DNA of 64,000 nucleotides, from contig JBAZSZ010000003.1 of assembly GCA_041662205.1 (NCBI GenBank), positions 9,772-73,771 on the forward strand, in the 5' to 3' direction. This document shows positions 2,635 through 64,000 of the stretch, in pieces. The notes under the pieces are model-generated. The model made no database searches, was not told the DNA's origin, and saw only the letters and a list, made by a program, of their open reading frames with translations. The stretch's first letter is position 1. Each line of letters starts with the position of its first letter. The position numbers were made by a program, and so were the translations under genes. Origin of the DNA: Minisyncoccota bacterium (GTDB lineage Bacteria > Patescibacteriota > Minisyncoccia > Phycocordibacterales > UBA9973).

Positions 2635-2637
2635 TTT

Positions 2638-2685
2638 TCCCCCACCCCAGGGATAGGGGAATTCCCCTATCCCTGGGGTGGGGGA
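2638..2685. repeat. Perfect GC-rich palindrome cccccaccccagggatagggg-aatt-cccctatccctggggtggggg (GAATTC core)
   Basis: Read directly from the sequence. Sits immediately after the stop codon of the SEDS gene. It is a sibling of the palindrome at 3554..3599. Confidence 0.9.
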
Positions 2686-2707
2686 AGCAAGGTTTTTAAA
2701 AAAATTT

Positions 2708-3571: not shown

Positions 3572-3599
3572 GGGAATTCCCCTATACCTGGTTTCGGGG
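3554..3599. repeat. Perfect palindrome ccccgaaaccaggtatagggg-aatt-cccctatacctggtttcgggg; its left arm encodes the FolD C-terminus and stop
   Basis: Read directly. Shares the core ataggggaattcccctat with the element at 2638..2685. Confidence 0.9.
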
Positions 3600-3614
3600 A
3601 AGGAATCAAATATT

Positions 3615-4789: not shown

Positions 4790-4831
4790 CCATATATTTA
4801 TTCGCCAGAGGCGAATAGGTGTGGAAAAAAA

Positions 4832-6214
4832 ATGATCAAAAAATTAATTTTATCAATTGTAATACTTATCGTTAGTGCTGGAATTGGCTTTTTTGTTTAC
4901 AAATCAGAAGCTAATTTTAGAAAATTACCAGAAGGTACAGTAGCTACTGGTTTGGCAAAATTTTCCTTTAAACTCGGACTGGATCTTTCTGGAGGCAGTC
5001 ATTTGATATACAAAGCTGATACTTCTTTGGTCCCAGCAGGTCAAGTGGGGGATTCAATGAATGCCCTTCGTGATGTAATCGAGCGACGTATAAATCTTTT
5101 CGGGGTTTCTGAGCCAGTAGTGCAAGTGCAACACGGAGGGTTTGTTTCTGGCAACAGCGATGAACAGTTGATAGTGGATCTTCCAGGAGTGACTGATGTG
5201 AAGCAAGCGATAAGTATGATCGGGCAGACTCCGCTTCTTGAATTTAAAATAGAAGGGGATAAGAATACTCCTCAAACTGTGACTGTTGGCAAAGACGGTA
5301 AAGTGAATTTGGAAAATTTGAATTTGGGAGCGCAATTTATTTCCACAGAACTTACTGGAAGATATTTAAAGAAAGCAACTCTAGAATTTGATACAAATAC
5401 TCGTGAACCTAAAATAAGTTTACAATTTGATGATACTGGTACAAAACTTTTTGCCCAAATTACAAAAGAAAATATCGGGAAAATGGTAGCGATTTATTTA
5501 GATGGCGCTCCTATCTCTACGCCAGTTGTTCGAGAAGAAATTCCTAATGGTCAAGCTGTCATTTCAGGTAGTTTCACTCCGACTGAAGCAAAAACACTTG
5601 TTGGCCGACTCAATTCTGGAGCTCTACCTGTACCGATAACACTCCTTTCTACTCAAACTATCGGTGCTACTCTAGGAGGTAGCGCAGTAAATGCTGGGGT
5701 CAAAGCTGCATTTATAGGATTTTTATTAGTGGCTATCTTTCTGATTCTTTTATATCGTTTACCTGGTTTGATTGCGACGATTTCTCTTTGTATTTTTATC
5801 GTTATAATACTTGCTCTGTTTAAATTAATGCCAGTGACTCTAACGGCAGCTGGTATCGCTGGTTTTATAATTTCGATGGGTATCGCAGTTGATGCAAATG
5901 TGCTTATTTTTGAACGGGTAAAAGAGGAACTACGTTCTGGCAAAAGTATTGCTGATTCAATTTCTATTGGTTTCTCTAGAGCTTGGTTTTCTATTCGAGA
6001 TTCAAATATTTCAAGTTTTATCACCGCCGTTATTCTTTTCTGGTTTGGTACATCTTTAATCAAAGGCTTTGCTTTGACACTCGGCATGGGAATCATTGTG
6101 TCGATGTTTAGTGCAATTGTCATTACTAGAATTTTTCTTTCAACAGTTGGCTTTATCGGAGAAGGGAAAATCGCTAGATTTTTATTTAGTTCAGGATTTA
6201 CTAGAAACAAATAA
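4832..6214 (+). CDS. secD: Protein translocase subunit SecD
   Basis: N-terminal TM helix, large periplasmic domain (LGLDLSGG), C-terminal 6-TM bundle with the GMGIAVDANVLIFERVKEE motif. Confidence 0.85.
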   Translation: MIKKLILSIVILIVSAGIGFFVYKSEANFRKLPEGTVATGLAKFSFKLGLDLSGGSHLIYKADTSLVPAGQVGDSMNALRDVIERRINLFGVSEPVVQVQHGGFVSGNSDEQLIVDLPGVTDVKQAISMIGQTPLLEFKIEGDKNTPQTVTVGKDGKVNLENLNLGAQFISTELTGRYLKKATLEFDTNTREPKISLQFDDTGTKLFAQITKENIGKMVAIYLDGAPISTPVVREEIPNGQAVISGSFTPTEAKTLVGRLNSGALPVPITLLSTQTIGATLGGSAVNAGVKAAFIGFLLVAIFLILLYRLPGLIATISLCIFIVIILALFKLMPVTLTAAGIAGFIISMGIAVDANVLIFERVKEELRSGKSIADSISIGFSRAWFSIRDSNISSFITAVILFWFGTSLIKGFALTLGMGIIVSMFSAIVITRIFLSTVGFIGEGKIARFLFSSGFTRNK

Positions 6215-6224
6215 CCTAATTAAC

Positions 6225-7127
6225 ATGTTTATAATAAAACACAAAAAAATATTTATCAGCATATCAGCAGTCTTGGTTATCCTTTCTTTTGTTTCTTTGT
6301 TTGTTTTTGGGCTGGAAATAGGTATTGATTTTAAAGGTGGCGCACTCACGGAGGTTGCTTATAAAGGAGAACGTCCAACTCAATCCACTCTGCAGGAATC
6401 TTTAGCGACTCTCGGTTTTGGATCAATTCTTCTTCAGCCAGTTGGAGATGTTGGCTATATTGCAAAGACTCGTGACTTAAATGATTCTGAACATGCCTTG
6501 CTTTTGACGACGCTCGGAGGAGGGAATAAAGATACTCTCACTGAAATGAGTTTCAATTCTATCGGGCCCTCTGTTGGTCAAGAACTTACTAGGAAAGCTA
6601 TTTTAGCGATTATTTTAATTTCATTTGCTATTATTTGTTTTATTGCTTTTGCTTTCAGGAAAGTTTCTAAGCCAGTTTCTTCTTGGAGATATGGGATTAT
6701 CGCCATCGTTACACTTTTACATGACGTATTTATTCCTATTGGAATATTTGTTATTCTTTCTCATTATTTTGGGGCAGAAATAGACACTCTCTTTGTGGTG
6801 GCAGTGCTTACTATTCTTGGTCTTTCTGTTTCTGACACAATAGTTATCTTTGATCGAATTAGAGAAAATTTGAGAAACCAAAATTCAATAGCTAAAGTAA
6901 ATTTTAGTGAAGTGATAGGTCACAGCTTAGAACAATCATATATTCGATCTATTTGTACCTCTTCGACTGTCATCCTCGTGCTTTTGGCCTTGTTCTTCTT
7001 TGGCCCAGTATCCACAAGGTATTTTGCTCTAATGCTTACGGCTGGAATGTTTTTTGGTACTTATTCTTCAATTTTCCTAGCTTCACCTTTGCTTATGCAA
7101 GTAGAAGAGTGGCAGAAGAAACAATAG
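6225..7127 (+). CDS. secF: Protein translocase subunit SecF
   Basis: GIDFKGG motif, then C-terminal TM bundle with VSDTIVIFDRIRE. The ATG at 6225 follows the secD stop; the ORF-track start at 6096 overlaps secD. Confidence 0.85.
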   Translation: MFIIKHKKIFISISAVLVILSFVSLFVFGLEIGIDFKGGALTEVAYKGERPTQSTLQESLATLGFGSILLQPVGDVGYIAKTRDLNDSEHALLLTTLGGGNKDTLTEMSFNSIGPSVGQELTRKAILAIILISFAIICFIAFAFRKVSKPVSSWRYGIIAIVTLLHDVFIPIGIFVILSHYFGAEIDTLFVVAVLTILGLSVSDTIVIFDRIRENLRNQNSIAKVNFSEVIGHSLEQSYIRSICTSSTVILVLLALFFFGPVSTRYFALMLTAGMFFGTYSSIFLASPLLMQVEEWQKKQ

Positions 7128-7175
7128 GTGTTATACTTTAAATAAGTTCTTGATTATTAGTTAACCATATAATAT

Positions 7176-7727
7176 ATGATGTACTTTTTAATAATTTTAC
7201 TTGCTATCGTTTTACTTGCAATTTTTTCTTTTAATCGTTTTGTTTCTTTGCGTAATCGTGCAAAAGAGGCGTGGGCAGATATTGAAGTTCAGCTCAAGCG
7301 TCGTTATGATTTGGTTCCGAATTTAGTGAATACAGTGAAGGGCTATGCTACGCATGAAAGTTCTGCTTTTGAGAATGTTACCAAAGCAAGATCAGCTGCC
7401 ATGGGAGCTACAGGGCCAACTACCGGCCATGCAGAAGCAGAAAATATGCTCACCAGTGCTTTGAAGTCAGTTTTTGCTATTGCTGAAGCATATCCAGATT
7501 TGAAAGCCAATCAAAATTTCTTAGCTTTACAAAACGAACTTTCTGATACAGAAAATAAAATTCAATCAGCACGCAGGTTTTATAATGCCAATGTTCGTGA
7601 CCTAAATACCTCAGTTGAAAGTTTCCCAGGCAATATTATTGCTAGTATATTTAATTTTTCTAAAATGGAATTTTTTGATCTAGCCGATAATGATGCTGCT
7701 CAAAATCCCGTAGAAGTAAAGTTTTAA
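7176..7727 (+). CDS. lemA: LemA family protein
   Basis: N-terminal TM helix plus the characteristic LemA core (AWADIEVQLKRRYDLVPNLV..., ...NQNFLALQNEL...). Confidence 0.8.
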   Translation: MMYFLIILLAIVLLAIFSFNRFVSLRNRAKEAWADIEVQLKRRYDLVPNLVNTVKGYATHESSAFENVTKARSAAMGATGPTTGHAEAENMLTSALKSVFAIAEAYPDLKANQNFLALQNELSDTENKIQSARRFYNANVRDLNTSVESFPGNIIASIFNFSKMEFFDLADNDAAQNPVEVKF

Positions 7728-7759
7728 ATTATTATTTTATTTCTTCAATAAATAAATTT

Positions 7760-8278
7760 ATGAAACAAAACGAATTTTTCGGTTCGAAATTAAATAGTGT
7801 ATTACTTTTAGTATTAATTATTTTAATGATTATTGCTATTAAAATAATGCTTCGAAATGAAAAAGAATATTTAGGTGTTTTTCAAAAGCAAGTTCCTGTC
7901 GTTGACACTACCCAAGAAATAATTCCGACAGAAGTCAGAAATAATATTTCAGGGAACAAAGATGATTTAATTTCTTTTTCTATCTGGCCAAATACTAAAG
8001 TCCGCGGCGTTCTATCTTATCGGGGAATAATAAAAGGCGGATATTTTTTTGAAGCTAATATCTTAATAAATATTTTGGACTCAAATAAAAAAATTATAAA
8101 ACAAAGTAATGCAATGGCTAAAGATGATTGGATGACTGCTGGTCCGGTAAATTTTGAAGGGAATATTGATTTTTCTGGACTTTTGAAAGGTCCAGCTTAT
8201 TTTGAAATCCATAATGATAATGCTTCAGGCTTACCGGAAAATGACAAATCTATCTTGATTCCTATTATAATAGAGTAA
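7760..8278 (+). CDS. Hypothetical membrane-anchored protein, possibly an Ig-like (Gmad2-type) domain
   Basis: N-terminal TM helix. Beta-rich C-terminus with GPVNFEGN. Sits between lemA and htpX. Confidence 0.45.
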   Translation: MKQNEFFGSKLNSVLLLVLIILMIIAIKIMLRNEKEYLGVFQKQVPVVDTTQEIIPTEVRNNISGNKDDLISFSIWPNTKVRGVLSYRGIIKGGYFFEANILINILDSNKKIIKQSNAMAKDDWMTAGPVNFEGNIDFSGLLKGPAYFEIHNDNASGLPENDKSILIPIIIE

Positions 8279-8282
8279 AATT

Positions 8283-9179
8283 ATGACGACACTTTATACC
8301 GAGCAATCAAAAAATGTTACGAAGACTTGGCTTTTGATGTCAATATTTTTTGTGGTGGTCATTAGTTTTGGTTGGTTTTTTAGTTTTTATTACAACAATC
8401 CGAATATTTTGTATTTTTTTGTTATCTTTAGTGTTTTAATGAATTTTTTTTCTTATTGGTATTCAGATAAAATAGTGCTTACTTTAGCTGGTGCCAAAGA
8501 AGCCAAAAGAGAAGAATATTTTGATCTTTATACGAGTGTTGAAAATCTATCAATCACTGCAGGACTGCCAATGCCGAAAGTATATGTGGTGCAAGATCTT
8601 GCGCCAAATGCTTTTGCTACCGGTAGAGATAAAAATCATGCCGTTGTTTGTGCCACCTCTGGACTTTTGCAAATTTTAGACAAGACAGAGCTAGAAGGAG
8701 TAATCGCACATGAACTTTCACATGTTGGGAATCGTGATATGTTGCTCTCGACTGTCGTCGTGGTGCTCGTCGGTTTTATTTCTATTATTGCAGATGTCTT
8801 TAGGAGAAATTTATTCTTTGGAGGTTTGGGAAGGGGTAGAGATGATAGAGAGAGTGGGGGAAATGCTATTTTTTTAATTGTCGGAATTGTTTTATCGATT
8901 TTAGCACCATTGGTGGCGGTTTTAATTCAGCTAGCTATTTCCAGAAAAAGAGAATTTTTAGCAGATGCTTCTGGAGCCTTACTTACCCGTTATCCTGAGG
9001 GCCTTGCTAATGCCCTGCGTAAAATTTCCCAATATAGCCAGCCGATGGTTCATCAGTCTAGTGCTATTGCACATCTTTATATCGCAGACCCAAAAGGTAA
9101 CAAAATCGGCAAGAAAATCAGTGGTCTTTTTGCCACTCATCCACCAGTTGAAGAAAGAATAAAAGCGCTCGTGGGATAG
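8283..9179 (+). CDS. htpX: M48 zinc metalloprotease HtpX
   Basis: HEXXH motif (HELSHVGNRD), four TM segments, C-terminal FATHPPVEERI. Confidence 0.85.
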   Translation: MTTLYTEQSKNVTKTWLLMSIFFVVVISFGWFFSFYYNNPNILYFFVIFSVLMNFFSYWYSDKIVLTLAGAKEAKREEYFDLYTSVENLSITAGLPMPKVYVVQDLAPNAFATGRDKNHAVVCATSGLLQILDKTELEGVIAHELSHVGNRDMLLSTVVVVLVGFISIIADVFRRNLFFGGLGRGRDDRESGGNAIFLIVGIVLSILAPLVAVLIQLAISRKREFLADASGALLTRYPEGLANALRKISQYSQPMVHQSSAIAHLYIADPKGNKIGKKISGLFATHPPVEERIKALVG

Positions 9180-9219
9180 AAATTTCGCAAGGGGAGTGTT
9201 TGCGAAATTATTTTAAAAT

Positions 9220-9843
9220 ATGAAAACATTGCCAATAAACCTCGATACTTTCGGTTTCGTAGAGAGAGAAAAAAATAATTCTGGTAAATATGTTCTTAAT
9301 CGTTGTGGTAGAGATTTTTTATATTATTCTCTCAATTATTTTCATCCAGATAAATACAATTCATTTGCAAAAAACCCTCAATTTATTCAGAAAAATAATA
9401 TTTTTGGTTTATCAACACCCCCATGGTTGGCTTTTGCTTTGTTGCAGTTTATTTACGTTCCTAAAGAATTGAAAAAAGAAAAATTAGAGTTATTTATAAA
9501 CGATAAATTGATTAACTCTGTGACTAATTTTTATCGAGTTTTATGGAAGCCTTCAAGAACAGATGTAGGGAAAAGAATAAAGGAGGTAGAATTCTCGATA
9601 GATAAAGGTTTTGTAGTTGGGATTGATTTATCTCTTTTTCTTTTTGGAATTTTTGATCATGTGATGTTTGTTTATGGTTATGACGAAGATAATTTTTATG
9701 TTTTCGATACACGAAAAATTAATAAATTAGAATATGAAAAAATAACAGAAGATAATAGATATATTATGAGATTACCTAAAGACATAGTCAGAAAAAGATG
9801 GTCTTTCTTTGGGAGAGTTTGGATTGTAAAAAGAATAGTATAG
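9220..9843 (+). CDS. Papain-fold cysteine peptidase-like protein (C39-like / BtrH_N-type)
   Basis: Candidate catalytic Cys (NRCGRDFLYYSL) and His (DHVMFVYGYDEDNFYVFD), spaced as in C39-like peptidases. Assigned by motif only. Confidence 0.4.
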   Translation: MKTLPINLDTFGFVEREKNNSGKYVLNRCGRDFLYYSLNYFHPDKYNSFAKNPQFIQKNNIFGLSTPPWLAFALLQFIYVPKELKKEKLELFINDKLINSVTNFYRVLWKPSRTDVGKRIKEVEFSIDKGFVVGIDLSLFLFGIFDHVMFVYGYDEDNFYVFDTRKINKLEYEKITEDNRYIMRLPKDIVRKRWSFFGRVWIVKRIV

Positions 9844-9856
9844 TAGTGTTAATCAT

Positions 9857-9876
9857 ATCTACGCTATAGCGTAGAT
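9857..9876. repeat. Perfect 20-bp palindrome atctacgctatagcgtagat (copy 1)
   Basis: Read directly. An identical copy lies at 10271..10290. Together they bracket ORF 9903..10265. Confidence 0.9.
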
Positions 9877-9902
9877 TAAGGAATGGTTATATAATCTATA
9901 TT

Positions 9903-10265
9903 ATGGCTGGAAGAAAATTAAAATATAAAGGTATGTCGGTGAATGTGTTTGGCTTACCAAGTTTTGGTAATTCTCATAAGGAAAATAAAATACTAAAAAT
10001 ACCAAAACGACGATATCTTCAATCCTTTATTTCTGATTTTAAAAAAGATTCACCTAAAAATTTGCTTCTAATTTATGATATTCCTGAAGGAAGAAAGAAG
10101 GAGAGGGATTGGTTTCGTCGTCAGCTAAAAAATTTTGACTTTATTATGATCCAAAGAAGTGTTTGGGTCGGACCATCACCTTTGCCAGTCAATTTTCTTG
10201 CCTACTTAAAAAGAATTGGATTACAAAAAGAATTTAAGACATTTAAACTAGCTAAGCCATATTAA
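9903..10265 (+). CDS. Small protein with a Cas2/VapD-like motif (also resembles the PaaX central-domain pattern); no CRISPR context
   Basis: Segment LLLIYDIPEGRKKERDWFRRQLKNFDFIMIQRSVWVGP matches the Cas2 core (hhhYDI..+R+.+h.+.L..aG.R.Q.SVa). A 55-aa basic N-terminal extension precedes it. Flanked by identical palindromes. Confidence 0.4.
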   Translation: MAGRKLKYKGMSVNVFGLPSFGNSHKENKILKIPKRRYLQSFISDFKKDSPKNLLLIYDIPEGRKKERDWFRRQLKNFDFIMIQRSVWVGPSPLPVNFLAYLKRIGLQKEFKTFKLAKPY

Positions 10266-10270
10266 AATTA

Positions 10271-10290
10271 ATCTACGCTATAGCGTAGAT
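10271..10290. repeat. Perfect 20-bp palindrome atctacgctatagcgtagat (copy 2)
   Basis: Identical to 9857..9876. Starts 6 nt after the stop of ORF 9903..10265. Confidence 0.9.
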
Positions 10291-10340
10291 GCAATAAGTA
10301 ATCTATTTATTTTTTAACTTCTCTCTGTTATACTCTTTAC

Positions 10341-10613
10341 ATGAACATTAAAGACGTTGAAAACCTTGCCAGCCTTGCTAGAATTGAGCTAGGAGAAGAA
10401 GAAAAAAAGAACCTACTCTCCGATATGGAGAGTATTTTAGGTTACGTCAAACAGATTGAAGAAGTGAAAGCCGAAGACGTAGAACCGGAATATAAAGTTT
10501 ATAATGTTTGGCGAGAGGACGAAATAATTCCAAGAGAATTTTCAAGAGAAATTATCGCAGAACAATTTCCAGATGCGCAAGAAGGATTTTTGAAAGTTAA
10601 AAAGATTTTGTGA
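10341..10613 (+). CDS. gatC: Asp/Glu-tRNA amidotransferase subunit C
   Basis: 90 aa. Begins MNIKDVENLASLARIELGEEEKKNL, which is GatC-like. Immediately precedes gatA. Confidence 0.8.
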   Translation: MNIKDVENLASLARIELGEEEKKNLLSDMESILGYVKQIEEVKAEDVEPEYKVYNVWREDEIIPREFSREIIAEQFPDAQEGFLKVKKIL

Positions 10614-10689
10614 ACATATCCTGTCATAAATTTTTTCCTCTTCCTCCCTTCTTGGATTACCAAGTGGGACCCACAGAGTTAAAAAATTT

Positions 10690-12132
10690 ATGACAGGCTA
10701 TGTTTTAAACAATATGATTGATTTAGAAAATTTAACAATAGAAAAAGCAAGAAAAGCTCTTGATGCGAAAGAATTTTCGGCGGTAGATTTAGCGTCCGCT
10801 TATTTAGCCGAGATTGAAAAGAAAAATAAAGAACTCAATGCATATTTGGAAGTTTTTGATGATGTGCTGGAACAAGCAAAAAAAGCAGACGAGATGATAG
10901 CCAAAGGGGAGACTTATCCACTACTTGGTATTCCTTTGGCTATTAAAGATGTGATATTAATCAAAGGCAGGAAAGTTTCTGCTGCTTCAAAAATTCTAGA
11001 AAATTATATCGCTTCGTATGATGCTACAGTTATCACTAAATTAAAAAAACAAGGGGTAGTATTTTTAGGTAGAACTAATACCGATGAATTTGCGATGGGT
11101 GGCTCTACTGAAAATTCAGCTTATGGAGTAACAAGAAATCCTCACGATGTATCACGGGTAGCAGGAGGGTCTTCTGGTGGATCAGTGGTCGCGGTGGCTG
11201 CAAATATGGCTCTGGGAGCCTTGGGTTCTGATACAGGTGGATCAGTGCGAGAGCCAGCTTCTTTTTGTGGAATAGTAGGCATGAAGCCTACTTATGGGAG
11301 GGTTTCTCGATATGGTCTTATCGCTATGGGTTCTTCTTTGGATTGTATTGGATCTATTGCTAAAAATATAACTGATGTTGAAATTATCTATAATGCTATT
11401 TATGGAAATGATGTGTTAGACAGCACTAGTATCACAGACACTACTTATTCAAAATCTTCCTTTAAAAAAGTTATTGGTGTGCCATGGGACTTAGTAAATG
11501 GAGAGGGTGTTGATTCAGATGTTAAGGAAAATTTTAAACAGTCTGTTTTAAAGTTAGAAAATCTTGGTTTTAAAATTAAAGATATTTCAATAAAAAATTT
11601 AGATCTAGCTCTGGCAATATATTATATTATAATGCCCGCTGAAGCGTCCACTAATTTGTCTCGTTTTGATGGGGTGCGATATGGTCTACACAAAGAAGGT
11701 AAAAATTTATTAGAAGATTATATGTTAACAAAAGGAAAAGGTTTTGGGAGAGAGGTTCGCCGTAGAATACTTTTGGGTACTTATGTGCTTTCTGCTGGTT
11801 ATTATGATGCTTATTATGGCAAGGCCCAAAATATTCGTAGTGTCTTAAGAAAAGAATTAATAAAAACATTTCAAGACGTTGATATTATAGCCACACCTAC
11901 TTCTCCTATACCGGCTTGGAAAATAGGGGAAAAAAGTGATCCGCTTTCTATGTATTTAGCAGATATATTTACTATTACTGCGAATATTGTTGGAGTTCCA
12001 GCTGTTTCAATACCATCAGGCTTAATGGAGGTAGAAGGCAAAAAATTACCTCTTGGTATTCAGTTTATGGTGTCACATGGAGCAGAAGAAGTGCTTTTCG
12101 AAGTCGGTAAAAAATTTGAAGAAATGCTATAA
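10690..12132 (+). CDS. gatA: Glu/Asp-tRNA amidotransferase subunit A (amidase signature family)
   Basis: Amidase signature block GGSSGGSVVAVAANMALGALGSDTGGSVREPA with the catalytic Ser, at GatA length. Confidence 0.9.
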   Translation: MTGYVLNNMIDLENLTIEKARKALDAKEFSAVDLASAYLAEIEKKNKELNAYLEVFDDVLEQAKKADEMIAKGETYPLLGIPLAIKDVILIKGRKVSAASKILENYIASYDATVITKLKKQGVVFLGRTNTDEFAMGGSTENSAYGVTRNPHDVSRVAGGSSGGSVVAVAANMALGALGSDTGGSVREPASFCGIVGMKPTYGRVSRYGLIAMGSSLDCIGSIAKNITDVEIIYNAIYGNDVLDSTSITDTTYSKSSFKKVIGVPWDLVNGEGVDSDVKENFKQSVLKLENLGFKIKDISIKNLDLALAIYYIIMPAEASTNLSRFDGVRYGLHKEGKNLLEDYMLTKGKGFGREVRRRILLGTYVLSAGYYDAYYGKAQNIRSVLRKELIKTFQDVDIIATPTSPIPAWKIGEKSDPLSMYLADIFTITANIVGVPAVSIPSGLMEVEGKKLPLGIQFMVSHGAEEVLFEVGKKFEEML

Positions 12133-56361: not shown

Positions 56362-56574
56362 ATCATCCTCCCTTGGATTTATTATAAAAGTTTATTAAGA
56401 TTTAAAAAATCAAATAATTAGATAGTTAAAGTGTTAATGTCTCCGTTTTAAATTTTACGGGGAGATTATTAATAGAGCATTAAAAGTCAAAAGTAACGGA
56501 TGATATATAGTATTGAACGAAGGGTAGTCCTTATTGAGACTGACATTTTAGATTTTTTCTGCTATATTTTCTTT

Positions 56575-57396
56575 ATGTCAAAGCTTTCTGTGGGAATTGT
56601 GGGGTTACCGAATGTGGGAAAGTCCACGCTTTTTAATGCGCTTACCAAGAAAGGTGTGCCGGCAGAAAATTATCCTTTTTGTACAATTGATCCATCGGTT
56701 GGCATTGTGCCAGTGCCAGATGAACGCTTGACTAAGCTTTCAGAAATTTCTAAATCTAAAAAAACTATTCCGGCTGTAGTAGAATTTGTAGATATTGCAG
56801 GATTAGTGAAAGGCGCAAGTACTGGTGCTGGACTCGGTAATAAATTTCTTTCACATATTCGTGAAGTGGACGCTATCATTGAAGTAGTGCGAATTTTTGA
56901 AGATAAAGATATGATTCACGTTCATGATAAAGTTGATCCACTTTTTGATATAGAAGTTATAAATTTTGAACTTGAACAAGCAGGAATTAAAAAGCCTACT
57001 CTGTATGTTTTAAATACATCTGAAGCAGCTGATAGCATTAAGAAAGATTTTATAGCTAAACTCCCTGGTCCTCATTTAGAAGTTGATCCGATATTTGGTA
57101 CCGGATTGGATACTCTCATAAAAGCAAGTTATGATTTATTAAATTTAATTACTTTTTTTACTACGGGAGAGGATGAAACGCGTGCGTGGACCACGCTCCG
57201 CGACTCAACTGCGCCTTTTGCTGGCCGTTCTATACATACGGATTTTCAACAGAAATTTATCCGCGCAGAGGTGGTATCTTATGATCAACTTATTGAGGCT
57301 GGAAGTTTCGCCAAGGCTCGTGAGCGTGGCTGGGTTCGCACTGAAGGCAAAGAATATATAGTCCAAGATGGTGATGTTATAGAATTTTTGATATAA
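56575..57396 (+). CDS. ychF: Ribosome-binding ATPase YchF (Obg family), compact form
   Basis: G1 motif [12 protein letters not shown] and a C-terminal TGS-like segment (QDGDVIEFL). Start taken at MSKLSVG. Confidence 0.8.
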
Positions 57397-57398
57397 AT

Positions 57399-58409
57399 AT
57401 GAAAAATCAAAACCAAAAAGAACACAAGATTAAAATTTTTTATTCGAAAGACTGGCCCCTCGTCTCTGCTCGGGACAAGACAGGATATGAGCTCATTGAT
57501 ACAGGCGAAGGGGAAAAGCTAGAGAGATTCGGACCATACACTTTTGTTCGGCCTTATGAAGATGCGGTTTGGCCGAAAACTTTGGAAAATAAGGAATGGG
57601 CAAAAGCGGATGGAAAATTTTGGAGTTCAAAAGTTGGTGCGAAGGCTGGATGGAAAATGTCAAAGGTGGGCTTTGATCTGAAATCAAAGTGGGAGATGGA
57701 ATATAAAGGTATTAAATTTTTAGCTTTACCTACGCCCTTTAGGCATTTAGGATTTTTCCCCGAGCAGGCGAGTCATTGGGATTTTATCGAAGAAAAAATA
57801 AGCACTGCCACGGAACAGATGAAGAATTCTTTGGCTTTACTCCACCCTTCGGGCGGAACCTTCCGCCAGCAGAATTCTTCTTCTGCTCCGCGACCTAAAT
57901 TTCTAAATTTATTCGGCTACACTGGAGTAGCGAGTCTTTTTGCTCTTCGCGCTGGTGCGGAAGTTACGCATGTCGATGCTTCAAAGCAAACTTTGAATTG
58001 GGCGAAAGAAAATCAAAATTGTAATGCTTTGCTTGTTGGGGCGCCGATGCGAGTGATAGAAGATGATGTAATGAAATTTTTAGAACGAGAAATAAAAAGG
58101 GGAAATAAATACGATGCAGTCATAATGGACCCACCGAAGTTTGGCAGAGGACCCAAGGGAGAAGTTTGGAAAATTGAAGAAATGTTGCCGAAACTTTTAT
58201 CACAAGTGCAAAAAGTTTTAAGTGATAAACCTATTTTTGTAATTCTAACTTCTTATGCGATTGATTCTTCTTCGCTTTCTTTGGGTTACGCTCTTTTTGA
58301 TATAATGAAGAATTTAAAAGGTAATACTGAACAAGGAGAGCTTTGCGTGTTAGAAAAATCCAACAATCGCATTATTCCACTTGCTAATACGGCCGTATGG
58401 AGCGTATAA
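57399..58409 (+). CDS. Class I SAM-dependent RNA methyltransferase (RlmI/YccW-like)
   Basis: Motif I LNLFGYTGVASL and motif IV VIMDPPKF, typical of RlmI-family m5C methyltransferases. Confidence 0.6.
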   Translation: MKNQNQKEHKIKIFYSKDWPLVSARDKTGYELIDTGEGEKLERFGPYTFVRPYEDAVWPKTLENKEWAKADGKFWSSKVGAKAGWKMSKVGFDLKSKWEMEYKGIKFLALPTPFRHLGFFPEQASHWDFIEEKISTATEQMKNSLALLHPSGGTFRQQNSSSAPRPKFLNLFGYTGVASLFALRAGAEVTHVDASKQTLNWAKENQNCNALLVGAPMRVIEDDVMKFLEREIKRGNKYDAVIMDPPKFGRGPKGEVWKIEEMLPKLLSQVQKVLSDKPIFVILTSYAIDSSSLSLGYALFDIMKNLKGNTEQGELCVLEKSNNRIIPLANTAVWSV

Positions 58410-58418
58410 TTTGATTAT

Positions 58419-59432
58419 ATGATTGTAGTTGTTCTCTTTGTCATATTTATAGGTGTGGTCGCTTTTTTTATTAATCTTAATATAAATTATATGGAGCCAA
58501 ATCAAACACAAAATCAAGTAAGTTCTAAAACAAGTGCAAAAGATTTTTTTATAAATTTAGGCGCTATCGTTGCCTTAGGTTTTTTTGTCGGAAATCTCAT
58601 CAATCTTTTATTTACAATAATAAATAAGGCTTTCCCTCTCACTACTGGTTTTAATTTTTCTGGAAGTTCTTCGATTAGTTTTCCTGTAGCTTCTCTCATT
58701 ATTTTCTTTCCAGTTTATATTTTCCTCATGTATTTACTCGAAAAGGATTATGTTTTGGAACCAGAAAAGAGAAATGTCGGAATACGCAAATGGTTGACTT
58801 ATATTACTTTGTTTATTTCTGGATTTGCTTTAGTGGGGGATTTAGTGACAGTTTTATATTATTTTATTGATGGTCAAGATATCACAATGGGATTTATTCT
58901 AAAAGCTTTATCAGTCTTGATTATCTCCCTTTCAATTTTCTATTATTATATTTCTGAAGTACGAGGAAAAATGAACATGAGTTTACAAAAAAAATGGGCG
59001 CTTGGTTCAGGGATAATAATTATTGCTTGTATTATCTGGGGTTTTTCTGTTCTTGGTTCTCCTCGCAATCAGCAACTTTTAAAATATGATGGACAAAAAG
59101 TGAATGATTTACAGAGTATAGAAAATTCGGTTCAGGATTTTTACGTCACCAAAGGTGTTTTGCCAAATAATCTTGATGAACTATTAACTCAAAATTATTT
59201 TGTAAATACAATAGATTCCCAAACTCAAAAACCATACGAGTATGAAAAGACAAGTAAAACTACTTTTAGCTTGTGCGCGGAGTTCAATAAAGAATTAACT
59301 AAGGCTGATTTTGGGGCGCAGCCTATGATATTTGGTGGAAATACTTGGATTCATGGGGTTGGAAGATTTTGTTTTAATAAAACCATAAATCCAAATTTAT
59401 TTTCAAAGCCAATACCAGTGCCAGTGAGATAA
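58419..59432 (+). CDS. Hypothetical polytopic membrane protein (about 6 TM) with an extracytoplasmic C-terminal domain
   Basis: Hydrophobicity only. Confidence 0.45.
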   Translation: MIVVVLFVIFIGVVAFFINLNINYMEPNQTQNQVSSKTSAKDFFINLGAIVALGFFVGNLINLLFTIINKAFPLTTGFNFSGSSSISFPVASLIIFFPVYIFLMYLLEKDYVLEPEKRNVGIRKWLTYITLFISGFALVGDLVTVLYYFIDGQDITMGFILKALSVLIISLSIFYYYISEVRGKMNMSLQKKWALGSGIIIIACIIWGFSVLGSPRNQQLLKYDGQKVNDLQSIENSVQDFYVTKGVLPNNLDELLTQNYFVNTIDSQTQKPYEYEKTSKTTFSLCAEFNKELTKADFGAQPMIFGGNTWIHGVGRFCFNKTINPNLFSKPIPVPVR

Positions 59433-59433
59433 A

Positions 59434-62328
59434 ATGAAAGAATACGATCATAAGAAAATTGAAAAAAAGTGGCAGATTCTTTGGGAGAAAAAAGGAATTT
59501 ATCACGCCCAAAACAAATCTAAAAAAAAGAAATATTATAGTTTGATTGAATTTCCTTATCCATCGGGGGATGGTATGCACGTGGGACATATCAGAAGTAA
59601 TACCGCAATGGATATCATTTCCCGCAAGCGTAGAATGGAAGGCTTTAATGTGCTTTACCCCATAGGTTGGGATGCTTTCGGTTTACCTACAGAAAATTAT
59701 GCCATAAAGACAGGCAAACAACCTGCTGTTATCACAAAAAAGAATACAGATACTTTTAGGAGGCAGCTTCAGTCTATTGGTTTTTCTTTTGATTGGTCTA
59801 GAGAAATAAATACCACAGATCCAAAATATTATAAATGGACACAATGGATATTTTTACAATTTTTGAAAAAAGGTTTGGCTTATAAAGCGAAAATGACCAT
59901 TAATTGGTGTCCGAAAGATAAAATTGGCTTGGCAAATGAAGAAGTGATAAATGGATGTTGTGAACGTTGCGGAACTACTGTAGAACAAAGAGAAAAAGAA
60001 CAGTGGATGCTCGCGATTACTAAATACGCCGATAGACTCTATGAAGACTTAGATGATGTTGATTATCTTCCACAAATAAAACTCGGGCAGAGAAATTGGA
60101 TAGGGAAATCCGAAGGCGCAGAAATCGAATTTAAAATTTCTTCCCCTATCCCAGGGATGGGGGAAAAGGTGAAAGTTTTTACCACGCGTCCAGATACTAT
60201 TTTTGGGGCGACATATCTTGTGCTTGCGCCCGAGCACCAATTAGTCCAAAAATTAAAATCACAAATTCCAAATTGGAAAGAGGTGGAGAAATATATTGAG
60301 GAAACAAAAAGTAAAACTGAGATAGATAGAAAAATTGAAGACAAAATAAAAACTGGAGTTGAACTGAAAGGAATTAAGGCAATAAATCCGGCAACAAAAG
60401 AAGAAATTTCTGTGTGGATTGCAGATTATGTACTTTCAACATATGGCACAGGAGCGATAATGGCAGTTCCCGCACATGATGAGAGAGATTTTGCATTTGC
60501 AAAGAAGTATAATTTAGAAATCAAGAATGTTATTGAACCAATTTTTGTTAATAATCCAAAAGAAGATTTACACTTTGTTGAACGAGAAGCTATACATGCA
60601 ATAGTAAAACATTGGACAGAAGAAAAATATTTAGCTCTAAAGTGGAAAAAAGTCGACTGGCTAACTTTTGTAACTGGAGGGGTAGAATCTGGAGAAAATA
60701 CTAAAGATGCTGCAATACGAGAGATTCAAGAAGAAACTGGATATCAAAATATAAAATTAATTAAAGAGTTACCACGTTCACATAGTAAGTTTTATCATGA
60801 GCCCAAAAAAGAAAATCGTTTTGCTCATTTTTCTAACTTTTATTTTCAACTCATTAATGATGAACAAAAAGAATTATCTCAAGAAGAAAAAGAAATACAT
60901 GAATTAAGATGGATGACTATAGAAGATTTGGAAAAAGAGATGACAATAGGTGGTGCTTTACGAGATTTAGAAAATTTACAAGGTAAAGAAAAATTTTATC
61001 TGGGCAATGGTATAGTAACTAATTCTGGGAGATTTGATGGTCAGGATTCAGAAAAAGCTAAAAAGGAAATTGTAAAATTTGTCGGGGGGAAAATAAAAAC
61101 TACTTTTAAGCTTCGTGATTGGATTTTTTCTAGACAGCGATATTGGGGTGAACCTATTCCGGTAATTCATTGTGAAGATTGTGGAATGGTCCCTGTGCCG
61201 GAAAAAGATTTACCAGTAGAATTACCAAAAGTAAAAAATTATCAGCCGACGGATAGCGGGGAATCACCGCTCGCAAATATTGCAAAATGGGTGAACGTAA
61301 AATGTCCAAAGTGTAAAGGCAAAGCCAATAGGGAAACAGACACGATGCCAAACTGGGCTGGTTCTAGCTGGTATTATCTTCGCTATACAGATCCAAAAAA
61401 TAAAAAAGAATTTGCCAATAAAAAAAATCTAAAATATTGGACACCAGTGGATTGGTACAATGGAGGCAATGAACACACCACACTTCATCTTTTATATTCT
61501 CGTTTTTGGCATAAATTTTTGTACGATTTAAAATTAGTGCCGACAAATGAACCATATATGAAACGTACTTCACACGGTATGATTTTAGGTGGGGGAGGTG
61601 TAAAAATGTCAAAGTCTCTTGGTAATGTAATAAATCCAGACGATATAGTAAAAACATATGGTGCAGATACATTACGCCTTTATGAGATGTTTATGGGGCC
61701 TTTCAATCAATCCGTCGCTTGGAGTGAAGAAGCGATTATTGGGCCGAGAAGATTTTTGGAAAGGGTGTGGAAGATAGGGAAACAAGTTGCCGAGCCTGAT
61801 ACTTTTACTCAGTCGCTCGGTCCCTCGCTTCGCTCAGCCACTCCTTCGCAAAAGCATACAGGCTCGGCAATGTCTGTTTCAAAACTACTCAATAAAACTA
61901 TCAAGAAAGTAACCGAAGATATCGAAGAAATGCGTTTTAATACGGCAGTTTCGACGATGATGATCTTGGTAAATGAAATGGATAAAAACGAAGTTAGTAT
62001 AAAAGATTTTAAAAAATTCTTACAGATTCTTGCTCCATTTGCTCCACACATTACTGAAGAACTTTGGGGTGTATTGGGTGAGAAAAAAACAATTCATCTT
62101 TCAGAGTGGCCTAAGTGGGATAAAAATTTTATTCAAGATGAAGAGATAAAAATAGCAGTACAGATAAATGGGAAAGTTAAGGCAGAAATAATGATATTGC
62201 TTGATGAAGACGAAGAGTCAATAAAGAAAAAAGTCTTTGCCAATGAAACAGTTTTGAAACAAATAGCTGGCAAAGAAATAAAAAAAGTGTTTTATGTAAA
62301 AAATAGACTTTTAAACATAGTTTTGTAG
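59434..62328 (+). CDS. leuS: Leucyl-tRNA synthetase with an in-frame Nudix-hydrolase domain insertion after the editing domain
   Basis: HIGH (HVGH), editing-domain motifs, KMSKS. Between ...AHDERDFAFAKKYNLEIK and ...TNSGRFDG lies an insert of about 150 aa containing a perfect Nudix box, GGVESGENTKDAAIREIQEETGY. Total length 964 aa. Confidence 0.9.
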   Translation: MKEYDHKKIEKKWQILWEKKGIYHAQNKSKKKKYYSLIEFPYPSGDGMHVGHIRSNTAMDIISRKRRMEGFNVLYPIGWDAFGLPTENYAIKTGKQPAVITKKNTDTFRRQLQSIGFSFDWSREINTTDPKYYKWTQWIFLQFLKKGLAYKAKMTINWCPKDKIGLANEEVINGCCERCGTTVEQREKEQWMLAITKYADRLYEDLDDVDYLPQIKLGQRNWIGKSEGAEIEFKISSPIPGMGEKVKVFTTRPDTIFGATYLVLAPEHQLVQKLKSQIPNWKEVEKYIEETKSKTEIDRKIEDKIKTGVELKGIKAINPATKEEISVWIADYVLSTYGTGAIMAVPAHDERDFAFAKKYNLEIKNVIEPIFVNNPKEDLHFVEREAIHAIVKHWTEEKYLALKWKKVDWLTFVTGGVESGENTKDAAIREIQEETGYQNIKLIKELPRSHSKFYHEPKKENRFAHFSNFYFQLINDEQKELSQEEKEIHELRWMTIEDLEKEMTIGGALRDLENLQGKEKFYLGNGIVTNSGRFDGQDSEKAKKEIVKFVGGKIKTTFKLRDWIFSRQRYWGEPIPVIHCEDCGMVPVPEKDLPVELPKVKNYQPTDSGESPLANIAKWVNVKCPKCKGKANRETDTMPNWAGSSWYYLRYTDPKNKKEFANKKNLKYWTPVDWYNGGNEHTTLHLLYSRFWHKFLYDLKLVPTNEPYMKRTSHGMILGGGGVKMSKSLGNVINPDDIVKTYGADTLRLYEMFMGPFNQSVAWSEEAIIGPRRFLERVWKIGKQVAEPDTFTQSLGPSLRSATPSQKHTGSAMSVSKLLNKTIKKVTEDIEEMRFNTAVSTMMILVNEMDKNEVSIKDFKKFLQILAPFAPHITEELWGVLGEKKTIHLSEWPKWDKNFIQDEEIKIAVQINGKVKAEIMILLDEDEESIKKKVFANETVLKQIAGKEIKKVFYVKNRLLNIVL

Positions 62329-62423
62329 TTGTTTAAAAAGATAAATCTAGATATAATGAATACAACATATTAAATGTTTATAATTTATAGTCGTTGTTGT
62401 TTATTATTTTTTATTAAAAACTT

Positions 62424-64000
62424 ATGATTTCAAGCATATTTGACAAGATTTCATTTTGGGCATTATTTTTAGTGATAGTATTATTACCACTTTTCTGTTT
62501 ACCTTTTACCAATATACCGGTTGAGACTTCTAAAGGACTCCTTTTAGTTGTTGGGCTTGCAATATCTGTGATTTTTTGGGCAATAGCTAGATTCTCTGAT
62601 GGTAAAATAATTCTTCCAAAATCATGGCTTTTAGTTTCTGGTTTTAGTATAGCTTTGATATTTTTATTGTCCTCTCTTTTTTCCTCGAATCCTCTAGTTT
62701 CATTATTTGGTACGATGTTTGATATTGGATCTTTCTATTTTATTTTTGCTGGCTTTGTTTTGATGTTGATGTCTTCTGTCGTTTTTAAAAATCCTAAACA
62801 GGCTAAAATACTTTTACTTGGGGCAATCCTGTCTTTGGCTTTTGTTTCGATTTTTCAGGTTGTTCATTTATTTGCGCCTACATTCTCATCGCTTGGGATC
62901 TTATCTTCTAAAACAGGAAATATTTTAGGTTCTTGGAATGCGCTCGGGCTTTTTGCAGGCTTTTCTATTTTGATGTTTCTTTTTATAATTGAATTTTTTC
63001 CAACTTCTAGAAGAGAGAAAATTTTATTGGGAATATTTATTTTATTTTCTGCCCTTCTAATGATAGTGGTAAATTTTCAATTAGCTTGGGTGCTTTTTGG
63101 AATTTCTAATTTGATAATATTTGTCTATAAGGCGTCAATCGTTTCTCAAGTAAAAGAAGAGAATGAGGGGGGAAATCCTGTCTACATAGGTGGGAACAAA
63201 AGACAATTTCCTATTATACCTTTTGTAGGTCTGATGATATCCTTGTTATTTTTTATTTCTGGACAGTTTGTCGGTGGTGTTGTTTCAAATCGTTTACAGA
63301 TATCAAATACTGAAATTAATCCTTCTCTTAGCGCTACTATGTCCATAACCAAAGAAGTATTTGTTAAAAATCCATTACTGGGTACTGGTCCAAATAGATT
63401 TGGTGTTGCTTGGTCAATGTATAAACCTTTTGCCATAAACAATACCCAATTCTGGGACACCACTTTTGATTCAGGTTCAGGATTATTACCTACCTTAGTT
63501 TCTACCGCTGGGATTCCCGCTATTCTAGCTTGGATTATTTTTCTTATTTTGTTTTTAATTATTGGAGTAAGGTCAGTTTTTTCTAGTATTAAAAATGGTA
63601 AAAATTGGGAGATGGTAGTATTTTTTGTATTATCCTTATATTTATTTGTTGCTTCATTCTTTTATTTTACTGGATCAGTAATTTTCCTATTAGCGCTTGC
63701 ATTTGCTGGGGTATTTATTGGATTAACTACTTCTAATTCCAATAAAGAAATATCAATATCATTTTTAGAAGATCATAGAAAAAGTTTTTTCTCTATTTTA
63801 TTACTCATCTTGCTTATGATTTTTTCTGCCTCTCTTTCATTTATGTATATAGAACGTTTTGCTTCTGTTTATTATTTCAGAAAATCCCTCTCCGCCACGA
63901 CCATTTCAGACGCAGAAGTTTATATTAACAAAGCACTTTCTTTATATTCAAATGATCTATATTTGCGTACTTATTCACAAATATACCTTATTAAGTTAAA
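62424..64000 (+). CDS. Large polytopic membrane protein, tentatively O-antigen ligase/Wzy-like (partial, runs off window end)
   Basis: Reading frame stays open from the ATG at 62424 to the window end by manual translation. More than 12 TM helices. Family assignment tentative. Confidence 0.4.
   Translation, partial: MISSIFDKISFWALFLVIVLLPLFCLPFTNIPVETSKGLLLVVGLAISVIFWAIARFSDGKIILPKSWLLVSGFSIALIFLLSSLFSSNPLVSLFGTMFDIGSFYFIFAGFVLMLMSSVVFKNPKQAKILLLGAILSLAFVSIFQVVHLFAPTFSSLGILSSKTGNILGSWNALGLFAGFSILMFLFIIEFFPTSRREKILLGIFILFSALLMIVVNFQLAWVLFGISNLIIFVYKASIVSQVKEENEGGNPVYIGGNKRQFPIIPFVGLMISLLFFISGQFVGGVVSNRLQISNTEINPSLSATMSITKEVFVKNPLLGTGPNRFGVAWSMYKPFAINNTQFWDTTFDSGSGLLPTLVSTAGIPAILAWIIFLILFLIIGVRSVFSSIKNGKNWEMVVFFVLSLYLFVASFFYFTGSVIFLLALAFAGVFIGLTTSNSNKEISISFLEDHRKSFFSILLLILLMIFSASLSFMYIERFASVYYFRKSLSATTISDAEVYINKALSLYSNDLYLRTYSQIYLIKL

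Follow-up and report, generated by a model that had tools for sequence, protein, structure and literature searches.

The leuS locus

The window (the whole 64-kb stretch of DNA that was analyzed) carries a leuS gene whose product, a leucyl-tRNA synthetase (LeuRS), has a Nudix hydrolase module nested within its CP1 editing domain (Table 1). An identical protein is on record as NCBI MFA6177916.1 from a Candidatus Paceibacterota MAG. The genes surrounding leuS are of a housekeeping kind and include those for YchF, a methyltransferase, and membrane proteins.

Table 1. Positions in the window of leuS and of the features encoded within it
Feature	Residues	Position	Strand	Basis
leuS, bacterial-type leucyl-tRNA synthetase with nested Nudix module	964 aa	59434..62328	+	continuous ORF
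HIGH signature (HVGH), class I catalytic core	49-52	59578..59589	+	read from sequence
CP1 editing domain, N-terminal part	220-367	60091..60534	+	PF13603 profile positions 1-143
T-rich region TTRPDT, in CP1 N-terminal part	250-255	60181-60198	+	
GTG loop, in CP1 N-terminal part	338-340	60445-60453	+	
AHDERD with conserved aspartates, in CP1 N-terminal part	347-352	60472-60489	+	
Nudix hydrolase module, nested in I4b loop of CP1	368-518	60535..60987	+	
Nudix box GGVESGENTKDAAIREIQEETGY (G-x5-E-x7-REUxEExGU)	415-437	60676..60744	+	regex
Subfamily-specific motif HSKFYHEPKKENRFAH: aromatic pair at +16/+17 past the box (X-loop), then K-x2-NR		60781..60828	+	
CP1 editing domain, C-terminal part, continuing 3′ of the Nudix module	519-549	60988..61080	+	
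KMSKS loop: MILGGGGV, then KMSKS (724-728)	716-728	61579..61617	+	
Anticodon-binding domain	818-928	61885..62217	+	PF08264, E 3.8e-23

The leuS product belongs to the bacterial LeuRS family, with a score of 1007 bits on the NCBIfam model TIGR00396 (leuS_bact, cutoff 548). Its domain order and motifs are those of the enzymes from Thermus thermophilus (1H3N/2BTE) and Escherichia coli (4AQ7), with which it shares HIGH, ZN1, CP1 with its T-rich, GTG, and Asp motifs (as defined in PMC3747510), KMSKS, the anticodon-binding domain, and the C-terminal domain. It scores 721 bits against 1H3N by sequence, and its AF2 model matches the T. thermophilus and E. coli LeuRS structures with TMt values of 0.78-0.80. 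Furthermore, G51 and H52 of the HIGH signature are invariant across 99 homologues. Judged by its residues, both the synthetic and the editing motifs of the host enzyme are intact and the protein looks functional. This is a full-length, bacterial-type LeuRS and, as judged from the 64-kb window, probably the organism's housekeeping enzyme.

A preliminary description of this DNA had considered the protein to be canonical apart from the insert. This view holds for HIGH, the T-rich region, GTG, the AHDxRD aspartates, and KMSKS, but the enzyme is not fully canonical because the leucine-specific domain is absent. Most LeuRS proteins, although not all, carry this domain before KMSKS. Here, query residues 720 and 724 align to T. 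thermophilus (Tth) residues 580 and 637, which leaves Tth 581-636 uncovered, and the site reads MILGGGGVKMSKS, with a stretch of four Gly residues before KMSKS. The protein is therefore unlike the T. thermophilus enzyme in having GGGG for the leucine-specific domain and a Nudix module for the loop Tth 364-373. For comparison, the LeuRS of Mycoplasma mobile has a tetrapeptide, GKDG (PMC3643597).

A Nudix module nested in CP1

The presence of a complete Nudix domain in the LeuS reading frame, first proposed from the sequence, is borne out by profile searching. The segment at 60541-61020 matches the Pfam NUDIX family (PF00293) with 67.9 bits (E 1.2e-18), well above the gathering cutoff of 21.1, and the ORF of 964 aa is continuous. 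The Nudix box lies exactly where it had been placed, its predicted catalytic Glu residues are aa 430, 433, and 434, and a motif scan found no second box elsewhere in the 64-kb window. The 3′ end of the segment required correction. When free-standing homologues and the junction conserved in tblastn matches are used to set the boundaries, the module is the interval given in Table 1, and the segment as first delimited runs 33 nt into LeuRS. The module adopts the alpha/beta/alpha Nudix fold, with an AF2 pLDDT of 95.9 when modeled alone and of about 89-94 for the same region in the full-length model. The Pfam score, together with the predicted fold and the results of fold searching, rules out a chance motif match. 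A real, complete, and confidently folded Nudix domain sits at a fixed junction in this LeuRS, and we regard the architecture itself as virtually certain.

The module also has a signature of its own, which comprises an N-terminal EPxF strand, WKKxxW, and HSKFYHxPKxxNRFAH. Across 27 diverse copies, K90, N93, and R94 (insert numbering) vary little or not at all. In Nudix proteins, the X-loop, located approximately 17 aa downstream of the box, determines substrate specificity (PMC5389931).

The extra residues were originally thought to follow the editing domain, but they are in fact nested inside it, at the I4b loop. Query residues 1-368 correspond to Tth 1-363 and residues 519-720 to Tth 374-580, and therefore about 150 residues stand in place of the 10-residue loop Tth 364-373. 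When aa 369-518 are deleted, PF13603 matches the protein as one uninterrupted stretch, in which construct residues 220-399 cover profile positions 1-183 of 185. The insert sits between model helices 350-358 and 539-549, which places it between the CP1 core helices alpha2 and alpha3 and beside the editing pocket. This is the position of I4b, the variable segment between CP1 alpha2 and alpha3 that borders the editing pocket (PMC3747510). The arrangement is a nesting three levels deep, from Rossmann core to CP1 to Nudix, with the Nudix module at the rim of the CP1 pocket that takes the tRNA 3′ adenosine.

Aminoacyl-tRNA synthetases (aaRSs) are textbook cases of domain accretion, and catalytic passengers are rare among the bacterial enzymes. 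An isoleucyl-tRNA synthetase (IleRS) with a GNAT N-acetyltransferase domain (NCBIfam NF040702) resembles the present protein in joining a class Ia synthetase to a second enzyme domain. However, that fusion, known from the NCBIfam listing, involves a different synthetase and a different passenger, whereas the Nudix module is nested within the editing domain. Among the peripheral insertions of CP1 (I2b/I4b in bacteria and I1ae-I4ae in eukarya and archaea), the insert shares the topological position of I4b. The known CP1 insertions are loops or single pocket-shaping helices, whereas the position is filled here by a complete enzyme fold with its own active-site motif, and none of the solved LeuRS structures contains a catalytic domain within CP1. 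Indeed, the LeuRS editing domain has been called strictly "insertion-only", with zero host instances among 2.7 million classified domains (PMC13114784). Here it hosts a whole enzyme, in lineages that make up much of the candidate phyla radiation (CPR).

Embedded and free-standing copies in Patescibacteria

A unique fusion is ruled out by the hundreds of embedded copies recovered in a full-length search and an exhaustive phmmer search. Hundreds of MAG proteins in public databases have the architecture, among them UniProt entries dating from 2015 (e.g., A0A0G0QTG5). The rarity implied by the preliminary description is therefore dispelled, although its suggestion that the architecture had not been described agrees with a full-text literature search, which found no published description or test of it. 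Among the 120 closest LeuRS proteins from NCBI, JGI, ENA, and Logan assemblies, PF00293 is present in 118. A motif scan located the same junction in 66 of 80 GTDB species loci, and these span Paceibacterota, Nomura-, Moran-, Colwell-, Vogel-, Kaiser-, and Berkelbacteria; the locus scan, limited by its motif, comprised at least 92 species. All copies retrieved are limited to CPR/Patescibacteria, in line with the lineage specificity that had been suspected.

Conservation of the module is strong. The Glu of the RE pair in the Nudix box is found in 283 of 285 subfamily copies, and all 285 have the final Glu of the EE pair. About 20% of copies have Q for the first box Glu and A, M, or T for the box Arg, and even these Q/A box variants retain, essentially without exception, the three metal-binding/catalytic glutamates of REUxEE. 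The dN/dS ratio among close relatives is ~0.11 in the insert versus ~0.08 in the rest of the gene. LeuRS is the usual host, with 241 of the 285 subfamily copies residing within it. Moreover, the long proteins among the best 150 matches are all LeuRS or LeuRS fragments save for two multi-Nudix proteins. Five copies not assigned to LeuRS at first come from four proteins, namely two LeuRS fragments and these two multi-Nudix proteins.

The copy at the I4b site is nearly universal in the clade and, among close relatives, is as conserved as the synthetase core. However, the same module occurs in relatives at other LeuRS sites (~aa 210-245 and ~aa 580-640), with at least three alternative positions in all. 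Of the four insertion sites, three lie within or at CP1. One to three copies are carried per LeuRS, some in tandem, and free-standing copies also occur. Exact placement by the editing pocket is therefore not required, and the alternative positions, as read from the sequences, argue against strict geometric coupling to one active site. The insertion probably arose once, early in Patescibacteria (in Parcubacteria-type lineages), and the module has been retained through purifying selection.

Free-standing Nudix proteins from Patescibacteria (P0001-P0007; 157-182 aa) share 49-59% identity with the window copy across the entire module, its EPxF strand at the N terminus and its C-terminal helices included. 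Because these matches are full-length, the module is a self-sufficient domain. Unlike the window copy, these proteins are encoded by stand-alone genes, and many have the Q/A box variant. The gene for P0003 belongs to a cluster (L001) of genes for small hydrolases, which includes four NUDIX genes along with Ham1, HAD, His_Phos, and Ser_hydrolase genes. In a Doudnabacteria MAG (L003), a free-standing copy is located 2.4 kb upstream of a leuS gene that lacks the insert. A 145-aa Nudix gene directly upstream of the same leuS was considered as a further member, but it is MutT-like and belongs to a different subfamily. No conserved gene neighbors of the free-standing copies were found.

Possible activities of the module

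From its residues, the Nudix domain is probably competent for catalysis. Its nearest characterized relatives in sequence and fold searches are ApnA/polyphosphate hydrolases, which fits the earlier idea of an Ap4A-degrading activity. Among characterized enzymes, the best matches are lupin Ap4A hydrolase (1F3Y), Aquifex 3I7U, T. thermophilus Ndx1 (1VC8), and Mycobacterium tuberculosis Rv2985 (9CXX), and identity to any characterized Nudix protein is 13-23%. The module shares the fold and the box with free-standing (di)nucleoside-polyphosphate hydrolases and has an aromatic X-loop residue at +17, but it is only 18-23% identical to them, has its own signature, and is embedded in another enzyme. 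The top structural neighbor is an uncharacterized Enterococcus faecalis protein (2AZW) that has the Nudix fold and box in common with the module, and RppH and mRNA-decapping Nudix enzymes are also among the neighbors by sequence and fold.

None of the NCBIfam Nudix equivalog cutoffs was reached, the best score being 39.7 bits for RppH (NF001936, cutoff 118). Membership in the RppH, MutT, NudC, and ADPRase groups was rejected on these missed cutoffs and on the absence of the Pro +16 and SQPWPFPxS markers; the window protein has Phe453 at +16, where the ADP-ribose marker Pro would stand. The exact offset of the Tyr past the box in ApnA hydrolases was reportedly given by Dunn et al. in 1999. In the window copy, Tyr454 is at +17, and this position is Y, F, or H, not an invariant Tyr, across 27 diverse copies. 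ApnA hydrolases are marked by an invariant Tyr downstream of the box (PMC6856373, which cites Dunn et al. 1999).

The likeliest task of the module would be to hydrolyze adenine-containing (di)nucleoside polyphosphates of the ApnA/NpnN type (Ap4A-like), which arise as side products of aminoacyl-adenylate chemistry. The Nudix domain would then work independently as a second enzyme on a tether to the synthetase, with no step in aminoacylation or editing. Counting against an ApnA substrate is the fact that LeuRS is a weak producer of Ap4A compared with LysRS or PheRS. We consider an ApnA-type substrate possible rather than probable. The reading as a whole, in which a housekeeping LeuRS carries a nested, independent Nudix pyrophosphohydrolase with ApnA/NpnN-type hydrolysis as its likeliest reaction, is offered tentatively, at somewhat less than an even chance. 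If it is correct, then nature has fused a producer and a destroyer of disputed alarmones, and the protein would be a clean system in which to examine the physiological relevance of dinucleoside polyphosphates made by aaRSs.

The module might instead be a general nucleotide-sanitizing enzyme with no substrate link to LeuRS, which in tiny genomes could act as a permissive, constitutively expressed scaffold whose surface loops gather small hydrolase domains. Related LeuRS proteins do carry other, unrelated domains in frame, including Ham1/ITPase (197 bits, P0210), Ser_hydrolase, alpha/beta-hydrolase, DUF559 endonuclease, and NTase-like domains, at the CP1 beta1-beta2 loop and elsewhere. The hydrolase cluster around the P0003 gene, the several positions and one to three copies of the module, and the lack of a conserved gene partner for the free-standing copies point the same way. 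Nevertheless, the near restriction of long matches to LeuRS, the conservation of the I4b copy, and the proximity of the free-standing Doudnabacteria copy to leuS all count against this reading, and house-cleaning of this kind seems somewhat unlikely. In a more intimate role, the module would be coupled to the editing pocket as a third active site, with the acceptor end of the tRNA or adenylates bound in the pocket as its targets, for example by removing a 3′-pyrophosphate or ADP-ribosyl group, by 5′-ppp/NpnN decapping of tRNALeu, or by gating CCA entry. In that case, selection for nearness to the tRNA end would explain why the same module was captured again and again at several CP1 sites. Consistent with this proposal, I4b residue Thr373 of Streptococcus pneumoniae LeuRS is ~4 A from an editing-site ligand, and I4ae lies over the entrance to the editing pocket in eukaryal and archaeal LeuRS, the eukaryal I4ae helix being the comparison for gating (PMC3747510). 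The predominance of CP1 among the insertion sites and the decapping enzymes among the module's neighbors are also in its favor. However, no RNA-binding features were found in the module, copies exist that are free-standing or lie outside CP1 (~aa 620-640), and a repair enzyme specific for tRNALeu would leave other tRNAs unrepaired. We judge such coupling improbable; were the Nudix domain to act on the tRNA end in this way, it would represent quality control of a new type, in which proofreading or repair takes place at the nucleotide level, a step not known in any aaRS.

The Nudix fold could also be non-catalytic, serving as a structural, tRNA-binding, or ligand-sensing appendage that compensates, for instance, for the missing leucine-specific domain. 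The Nudix clan does include non-enzymatic members (PMC5389931), and the replaced first Glu and Arg in about a fifth of the boxes would be in keeping with such a role. On the other hand, the REUxEE glutamates persist in those variants and the box of the window copy is fully canonical. Furthermore, an insert-less relative (P0121), whose I4b loop reads RPTDLPAMEGEKSKLIYDAIISGEG, likewise lacks the leucine-specific domain (GMILGEGGVKMSKS), and the Nudix module is therefore not its replacement. A non-catalytic role is accordingly quite improbable. Least credible, to the point of being nearly dismissed, is an artefact or a selfish element (an assembly chimera, pseudogene, intein, or recent mobile insertion), although some relatives do carry the DUF559 endonuclease domain in CP1 and the GC3 of the insert (0.13) is well under that of the rest of the gene (0.30). 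This dip is systematic, being found in 69 of 74 embedded copies and in all lineages, and therefore is no sign of recent transfer. An assembly chimera, the outcome against which the preliminary description had warned, and a pseudogene, which it had discounted, are both ruled out, because the ORF is unbroken and dozens of independent assemblies show the same architecture with the same junction; the dN/dS of ~0.1 and the housekeeping gene context agree. It was also right to discount an intein: the Pfam scan of the LeuRS found no Hint or intein family, and the junctions VIE|PIFV and LQGK|EKFY lack splice residues.

Whether it degrades ApnA/NpnN or acts on the tRNA end, the module marks a lineage-specific feature in an essential enzyme of organisms that are hard to culture. 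More broadly, the LeuRS of Patescibacteria is a hot spot of in-frame domain capture, having acquired Nudix modules (one to three), Ham1, hydrolases, and an endonuclease. The insert also accounts for the fact that NCBI names many such proteins only as "class I tRNA ligase family protein".

A Nudix domain nested in the LeuRS editing domain

The leuS gene of the window encodes a leucyl-tRNA synthetase (LeuRS) whose reading frame is continuous, as stated in the preliminary description. The protein scores 1007 bits against NCBIfam TIGR00396 (cutoff 548), with the match divided into two stretches, and Pfam assigns to it the class I catalytic core, the editing domain (CP1, PF13603), the anticodon-binding domain, and a NUDIX domain (PF00293, residues 408–502, E = 2e-17). 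The enzyme was originally described as otherwise canonical, and this holds for its HVGH, TTRPDT, GTG, AHDERD, and KMSKS motifs, which are all intact, but not for the leucine-specific domain. That domain is absent, and the short segment MILGGGGVKMSKS stands in place of residues 581–636 in an alignment to Thermus thermophilus LeuRS. P0121, a relative without the insert, likewise has no leucine-specific domain.

Features of the leuS region (window coordinates)
Feature	Nucleotides	Strand	LeuRS residues	Comment
YchF GTPase gene	56500–57396	+		First in packed run before leuS
SAM-methyltransferase gene	57399–58409	+		Follows YchF, tightly packed
DUF5671 membrane-protein gene	58419–59432	+		Stop 2 nt before leuS start
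leuS	59434–62328	+		Continuous, 964 aa, bacterial-type LeuRS
Nudix module	60535–60987	+	368–518	Boundaries from free-standing homologues and conserved junction
Nudix box GGVESGENTKDAAIREIQEETGY	60676–60744	+	415–437	
First box Glu	60694–60696		421	
Box Arg	60718–60720		429	
MILGGGGVKMSKS	61579–61617		716–728	
Stretch with pLDDT <50	61801–61863		790–810	Within AEPDTFTQSLGPSLRSATPSQKHTGSAMS
Large multi-pass membrane-protein ORF	62418–63998			Downstream of leuS; continues past window end

In the T. thermophilus alignment (1H3N), residues 1–368 and 519–720 of the window protein correspond to residues 1–363 and 374–580, so the loop at 364–373 has been replaced by approximately 150 residues. Deleting residues 369–518 in silico yields a single continuous PF13603 match (residues 220–399 to profile positions 1–183 of 185) with an unchanged score. 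Therefore, the Nudix domain is nested within CP1 and does not follow the end of the editing domain, as had been proposed.

In the AlphaFold2 (AF2) model, the insert is flanked by helices 350–358 and 539–549, a position that corresponds to the published I4b segment. The module is thus predicted to border the editing pocket at its rim. I4b is a long, non-conserved loop running from alpha2 to alpha3 in bacterial CP1; its residue Thr373 in Streptococcus pneumoniae LeuRS is ~4 Å from an editing-site ligand, and its eukaryal/archaeal counterpart, I4ae, covers the pocket's entrance (PMC3747510). Solved LeuRS structures have nothing beyond a loop at this site, whereas the window LeuRS carries a whole Nudix domain.

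The textbook Nudix box reported in the preliminary description is present at the position first assigned to it, and no second box occurs elsewhere in the 64-kb window. Two of the checks proposed there, a profile search and structure prediction, bear out a Nudix fold. The originally delimited segment (60541–61020) alone matches PF00293 with 67.9 bits (E = 1.2e-18, gathering cutoff 21.1). A full-length AF2 model built with 99 homologues has a pLDDT of 83 overall and ~89–94 over the insert, and it superposes on bacterial LeuRS with TMt values of 0.78–0.80, while the module modeled alone reaches a pLDDT of 95.9. The protein belongs to both the Nudix superfamily and bacterial LeuRS. It reaches the threshold of no characterized Nudix subfamily (e.g., RppH, 39.7 bits versus a cutoff of 118). 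The sole stretch of the LeuRS model with a pLDDT below 50 is directly N-terminal of the anticodon-binding domain, where local GC content rises to as much as 0.44, and is probably a variable linker.

Distribution and variation of the module

An exhaustive phmmer search of 1.84 billion representatives with the module gave 930 matches at E ≤ 1e-3, of which 205 reached E ≤ 1e-10, and the long proteins among the best 150 matches are nearly all LeuRS or LeuRS fragments. Most of the 285 classified copies (212) occupy the I4b loop, as in the window (site B). Another 24 are on or close to the N-terminal border of CP1 (site A, ~210–245), 5 are at ~580–640 (site C), and 39 are free-standing proteins of 150–200 amino acids. 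The remaining 5 are in proteins with no LeuRS match, which proved to be either fragments of LeuRS or proteins with multiple Nudix domains. In window numbering, the subfamily is found at no fewer than four distinct LeuRS positions (~210–224, 236–245, 368, and 580–640), and some proteins, such as P0152 and P0244, carry it solely at a non-window site. Two or three copies in a single LeuRS, tandem pairs, or placement at other positions are seen among proteins P0128 (two copies at A plus one at B), P0129, P0130, P0151, P0175 (a tandem pair at B), and P0244, and among loci L059, L062, L069, L070, L079, L080, L082, and L083.

The window protein is identical to MFA6177916.1 from a Candidatus Paceibacterota metagenome-assembled genome (MAG). 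Precomputed annotation places PF00293 in 118 of its 120 best LeuRS homologues (55–83% identity), and alignment places the module at the same site in 119, with P0121 (826 aa) as the sole exception. A motif-limited GTDB scan of one genome per species matched 92 species, and 66 of the 80 loci kept have an embedded module with its junction at residues 367/368. Counts obtained from searches limited by motif or word are minimum values. These 66 loci are labeled Paceibacterota, Nomura-, Moran-, Colwell-, Vogel-, Kaiser-, and Berkelbacteria, or 'Patescibacteria group'. A few GTDB records with a CPR-type leuS are labeled Nanoarchaeota, Gammaproteobacteria, or Saccharibacteria, which are probably binning or labeling errors. 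Homologues have been in UniProt since MAGs of 2015 (e.g., A0A0G0QTG5). An assembly chimera is excluded, given that the module and its junction recur in dozens of independent assemblies. P0008 and many other relatives are named by NCBI only as 'class I tRNA ligase family protein' and not as leucine--tRNA ligase, likely because their match to the LeuRS model is split by the nested domain.

Within the box, the first Glu and the Arg co-vary across the 285 copies: 201 have the ER pair, ~55 have Q with A, M, or T, and only 5 have QR. Both ER and Q-type boxes occur in embedded and free-standing copies, and they can share one protein (P0128). Relative to the closest relative (locus L004), dN/dS is ~0.11 for the insert and ~0.08 for the remainder of the gene. 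In four comparisons, amino acid identities are 89, 83, 76, and 72% for the insert, in step with values of 85, 76, 80, and 73% for the core.

Possible functions of the module

Both component families are known, and the combined architecture is present in databases but is undescribed and uncharacterized in the searchable literature. Our full-text literature searches found no description of it. The words tRNA and synthetase are absent from a 2017 review of the Nudix clan (PMC5389931). According to a 2026 survey of domain insertions (PMC13114784), the editing domain of LeuRS is exclusively an inserted module, with 'zero instances of host function', a statement that is contradicted by a Nudix domain nested in CP1.

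The module is a conserved Nudix fold at I4b that looks catalytically competent, and we infer that it is an active pyrophosphohydrolase. A non-catalytic role is unlikely because the REUxEE glutamates are essentially invariant (kept in 283–285 of the 285 copies). We tentatively favor the idea that the module would hydrolyze ApnA/NpnN-type by-products as an autonomous activity tethered to LeuRS. Just three leads bear on the substrate. Among characterized proteins, those closest in sequence and structure are (di)nucleoside or long-polyphosphate hydrolases, and the module is associated near-exclusively with one adenylate-forming enzyme, LeuRS. Furthermore, in the X-loop, which sets Nudix substrate specificity (PMC5389931), positions +16 and +17 downstream of the box are both aromatic, with Tyr at +17 in the window protein and no Pro at +16. 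An invariant Tyr is a mark of ApnA hydrolases, and Pro at +16 is a mark of ADP-ribose pyrophosphatases (PMC6856373).

Perhaps the module is instead a generic house-cleaning domain on a permissive LeuRS scaffold. This main alternative, which we consider only somewhat less likely, would fit the multiple LeuRS sites occupied by the module and the capture of other, unrelated domains by related LeuRS proteins, but the host range of the module, which is strictly LeuRS, speaks against it. A role in which the module is mechanistically coupled to the editing pocket or to the end of the tRNA seems quite improbable.

Other captured domains, gene neighborhoods, and base composition

Further in-frame domains are found in Patescibacteria LeuRS proteins of 1100–1350 amino acids (P0015, P0043, P0056, P0085, P0086, P0116, and P0210). 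The unrelated domains include DUF559/MTES_1575 endonuclease, alpha/beta-hydrolases, Ser_hydrolase, aminoglycoside-NTase-like, and Ham1/ITPase (197 bits for Ham1 in P0210). They are mostly located in the CP1 beta1-beta2 loop (PF13603 profile position ~20), and one complete Ham1 separates the catalytic core from the anticodon-binding domain. In the candidate phyla radiation, LeuRS seems to be a hot spot at which domains are captured.

Free-standing homologues are 49–59% identical to the window module, and no conserved neighbors of these copies were found. One resides within a small-hydrolase cluster (four NUDIX, Ham1, HAD, His_Phos, and Ser_hydrolase). In a Candidatus Doudnabacteria MAG (GCA_023245955.1, locus L003), a free-standing module is 2.4 kb upstream of a leuS that lacks the insert. 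One strand of this locus (2482–11389) encodes MetRS, TatD, the module-type Nudix, a YfbR-like HD-domain protein, a second, MutT-like Nudix, and a LeuRS of 823 amino acids. Thus, the Nudix subfamily can be near leuS even when unfused. The Nudix gene adjoining leuS is the MutT-like one, which is of a different subfamily from the module.

The module in the window has a GC3 of 0.13 versus 0.30 for the remainder of leuS (GC 0.30 versus 0.36), and sliding 150-codon GC3 falls to ~0.15 across codons 300–500. Across lineages, GC3 is lower in the insert than in the host in 69 of 74 embedded copies (loci L004–L083; means 0.369 versus 0.445; Wilcoxon p ~1e-11). This dip might reflect weaker codon/accuracy selection or, perhaps, translational pacing for the folding of a nested domain.
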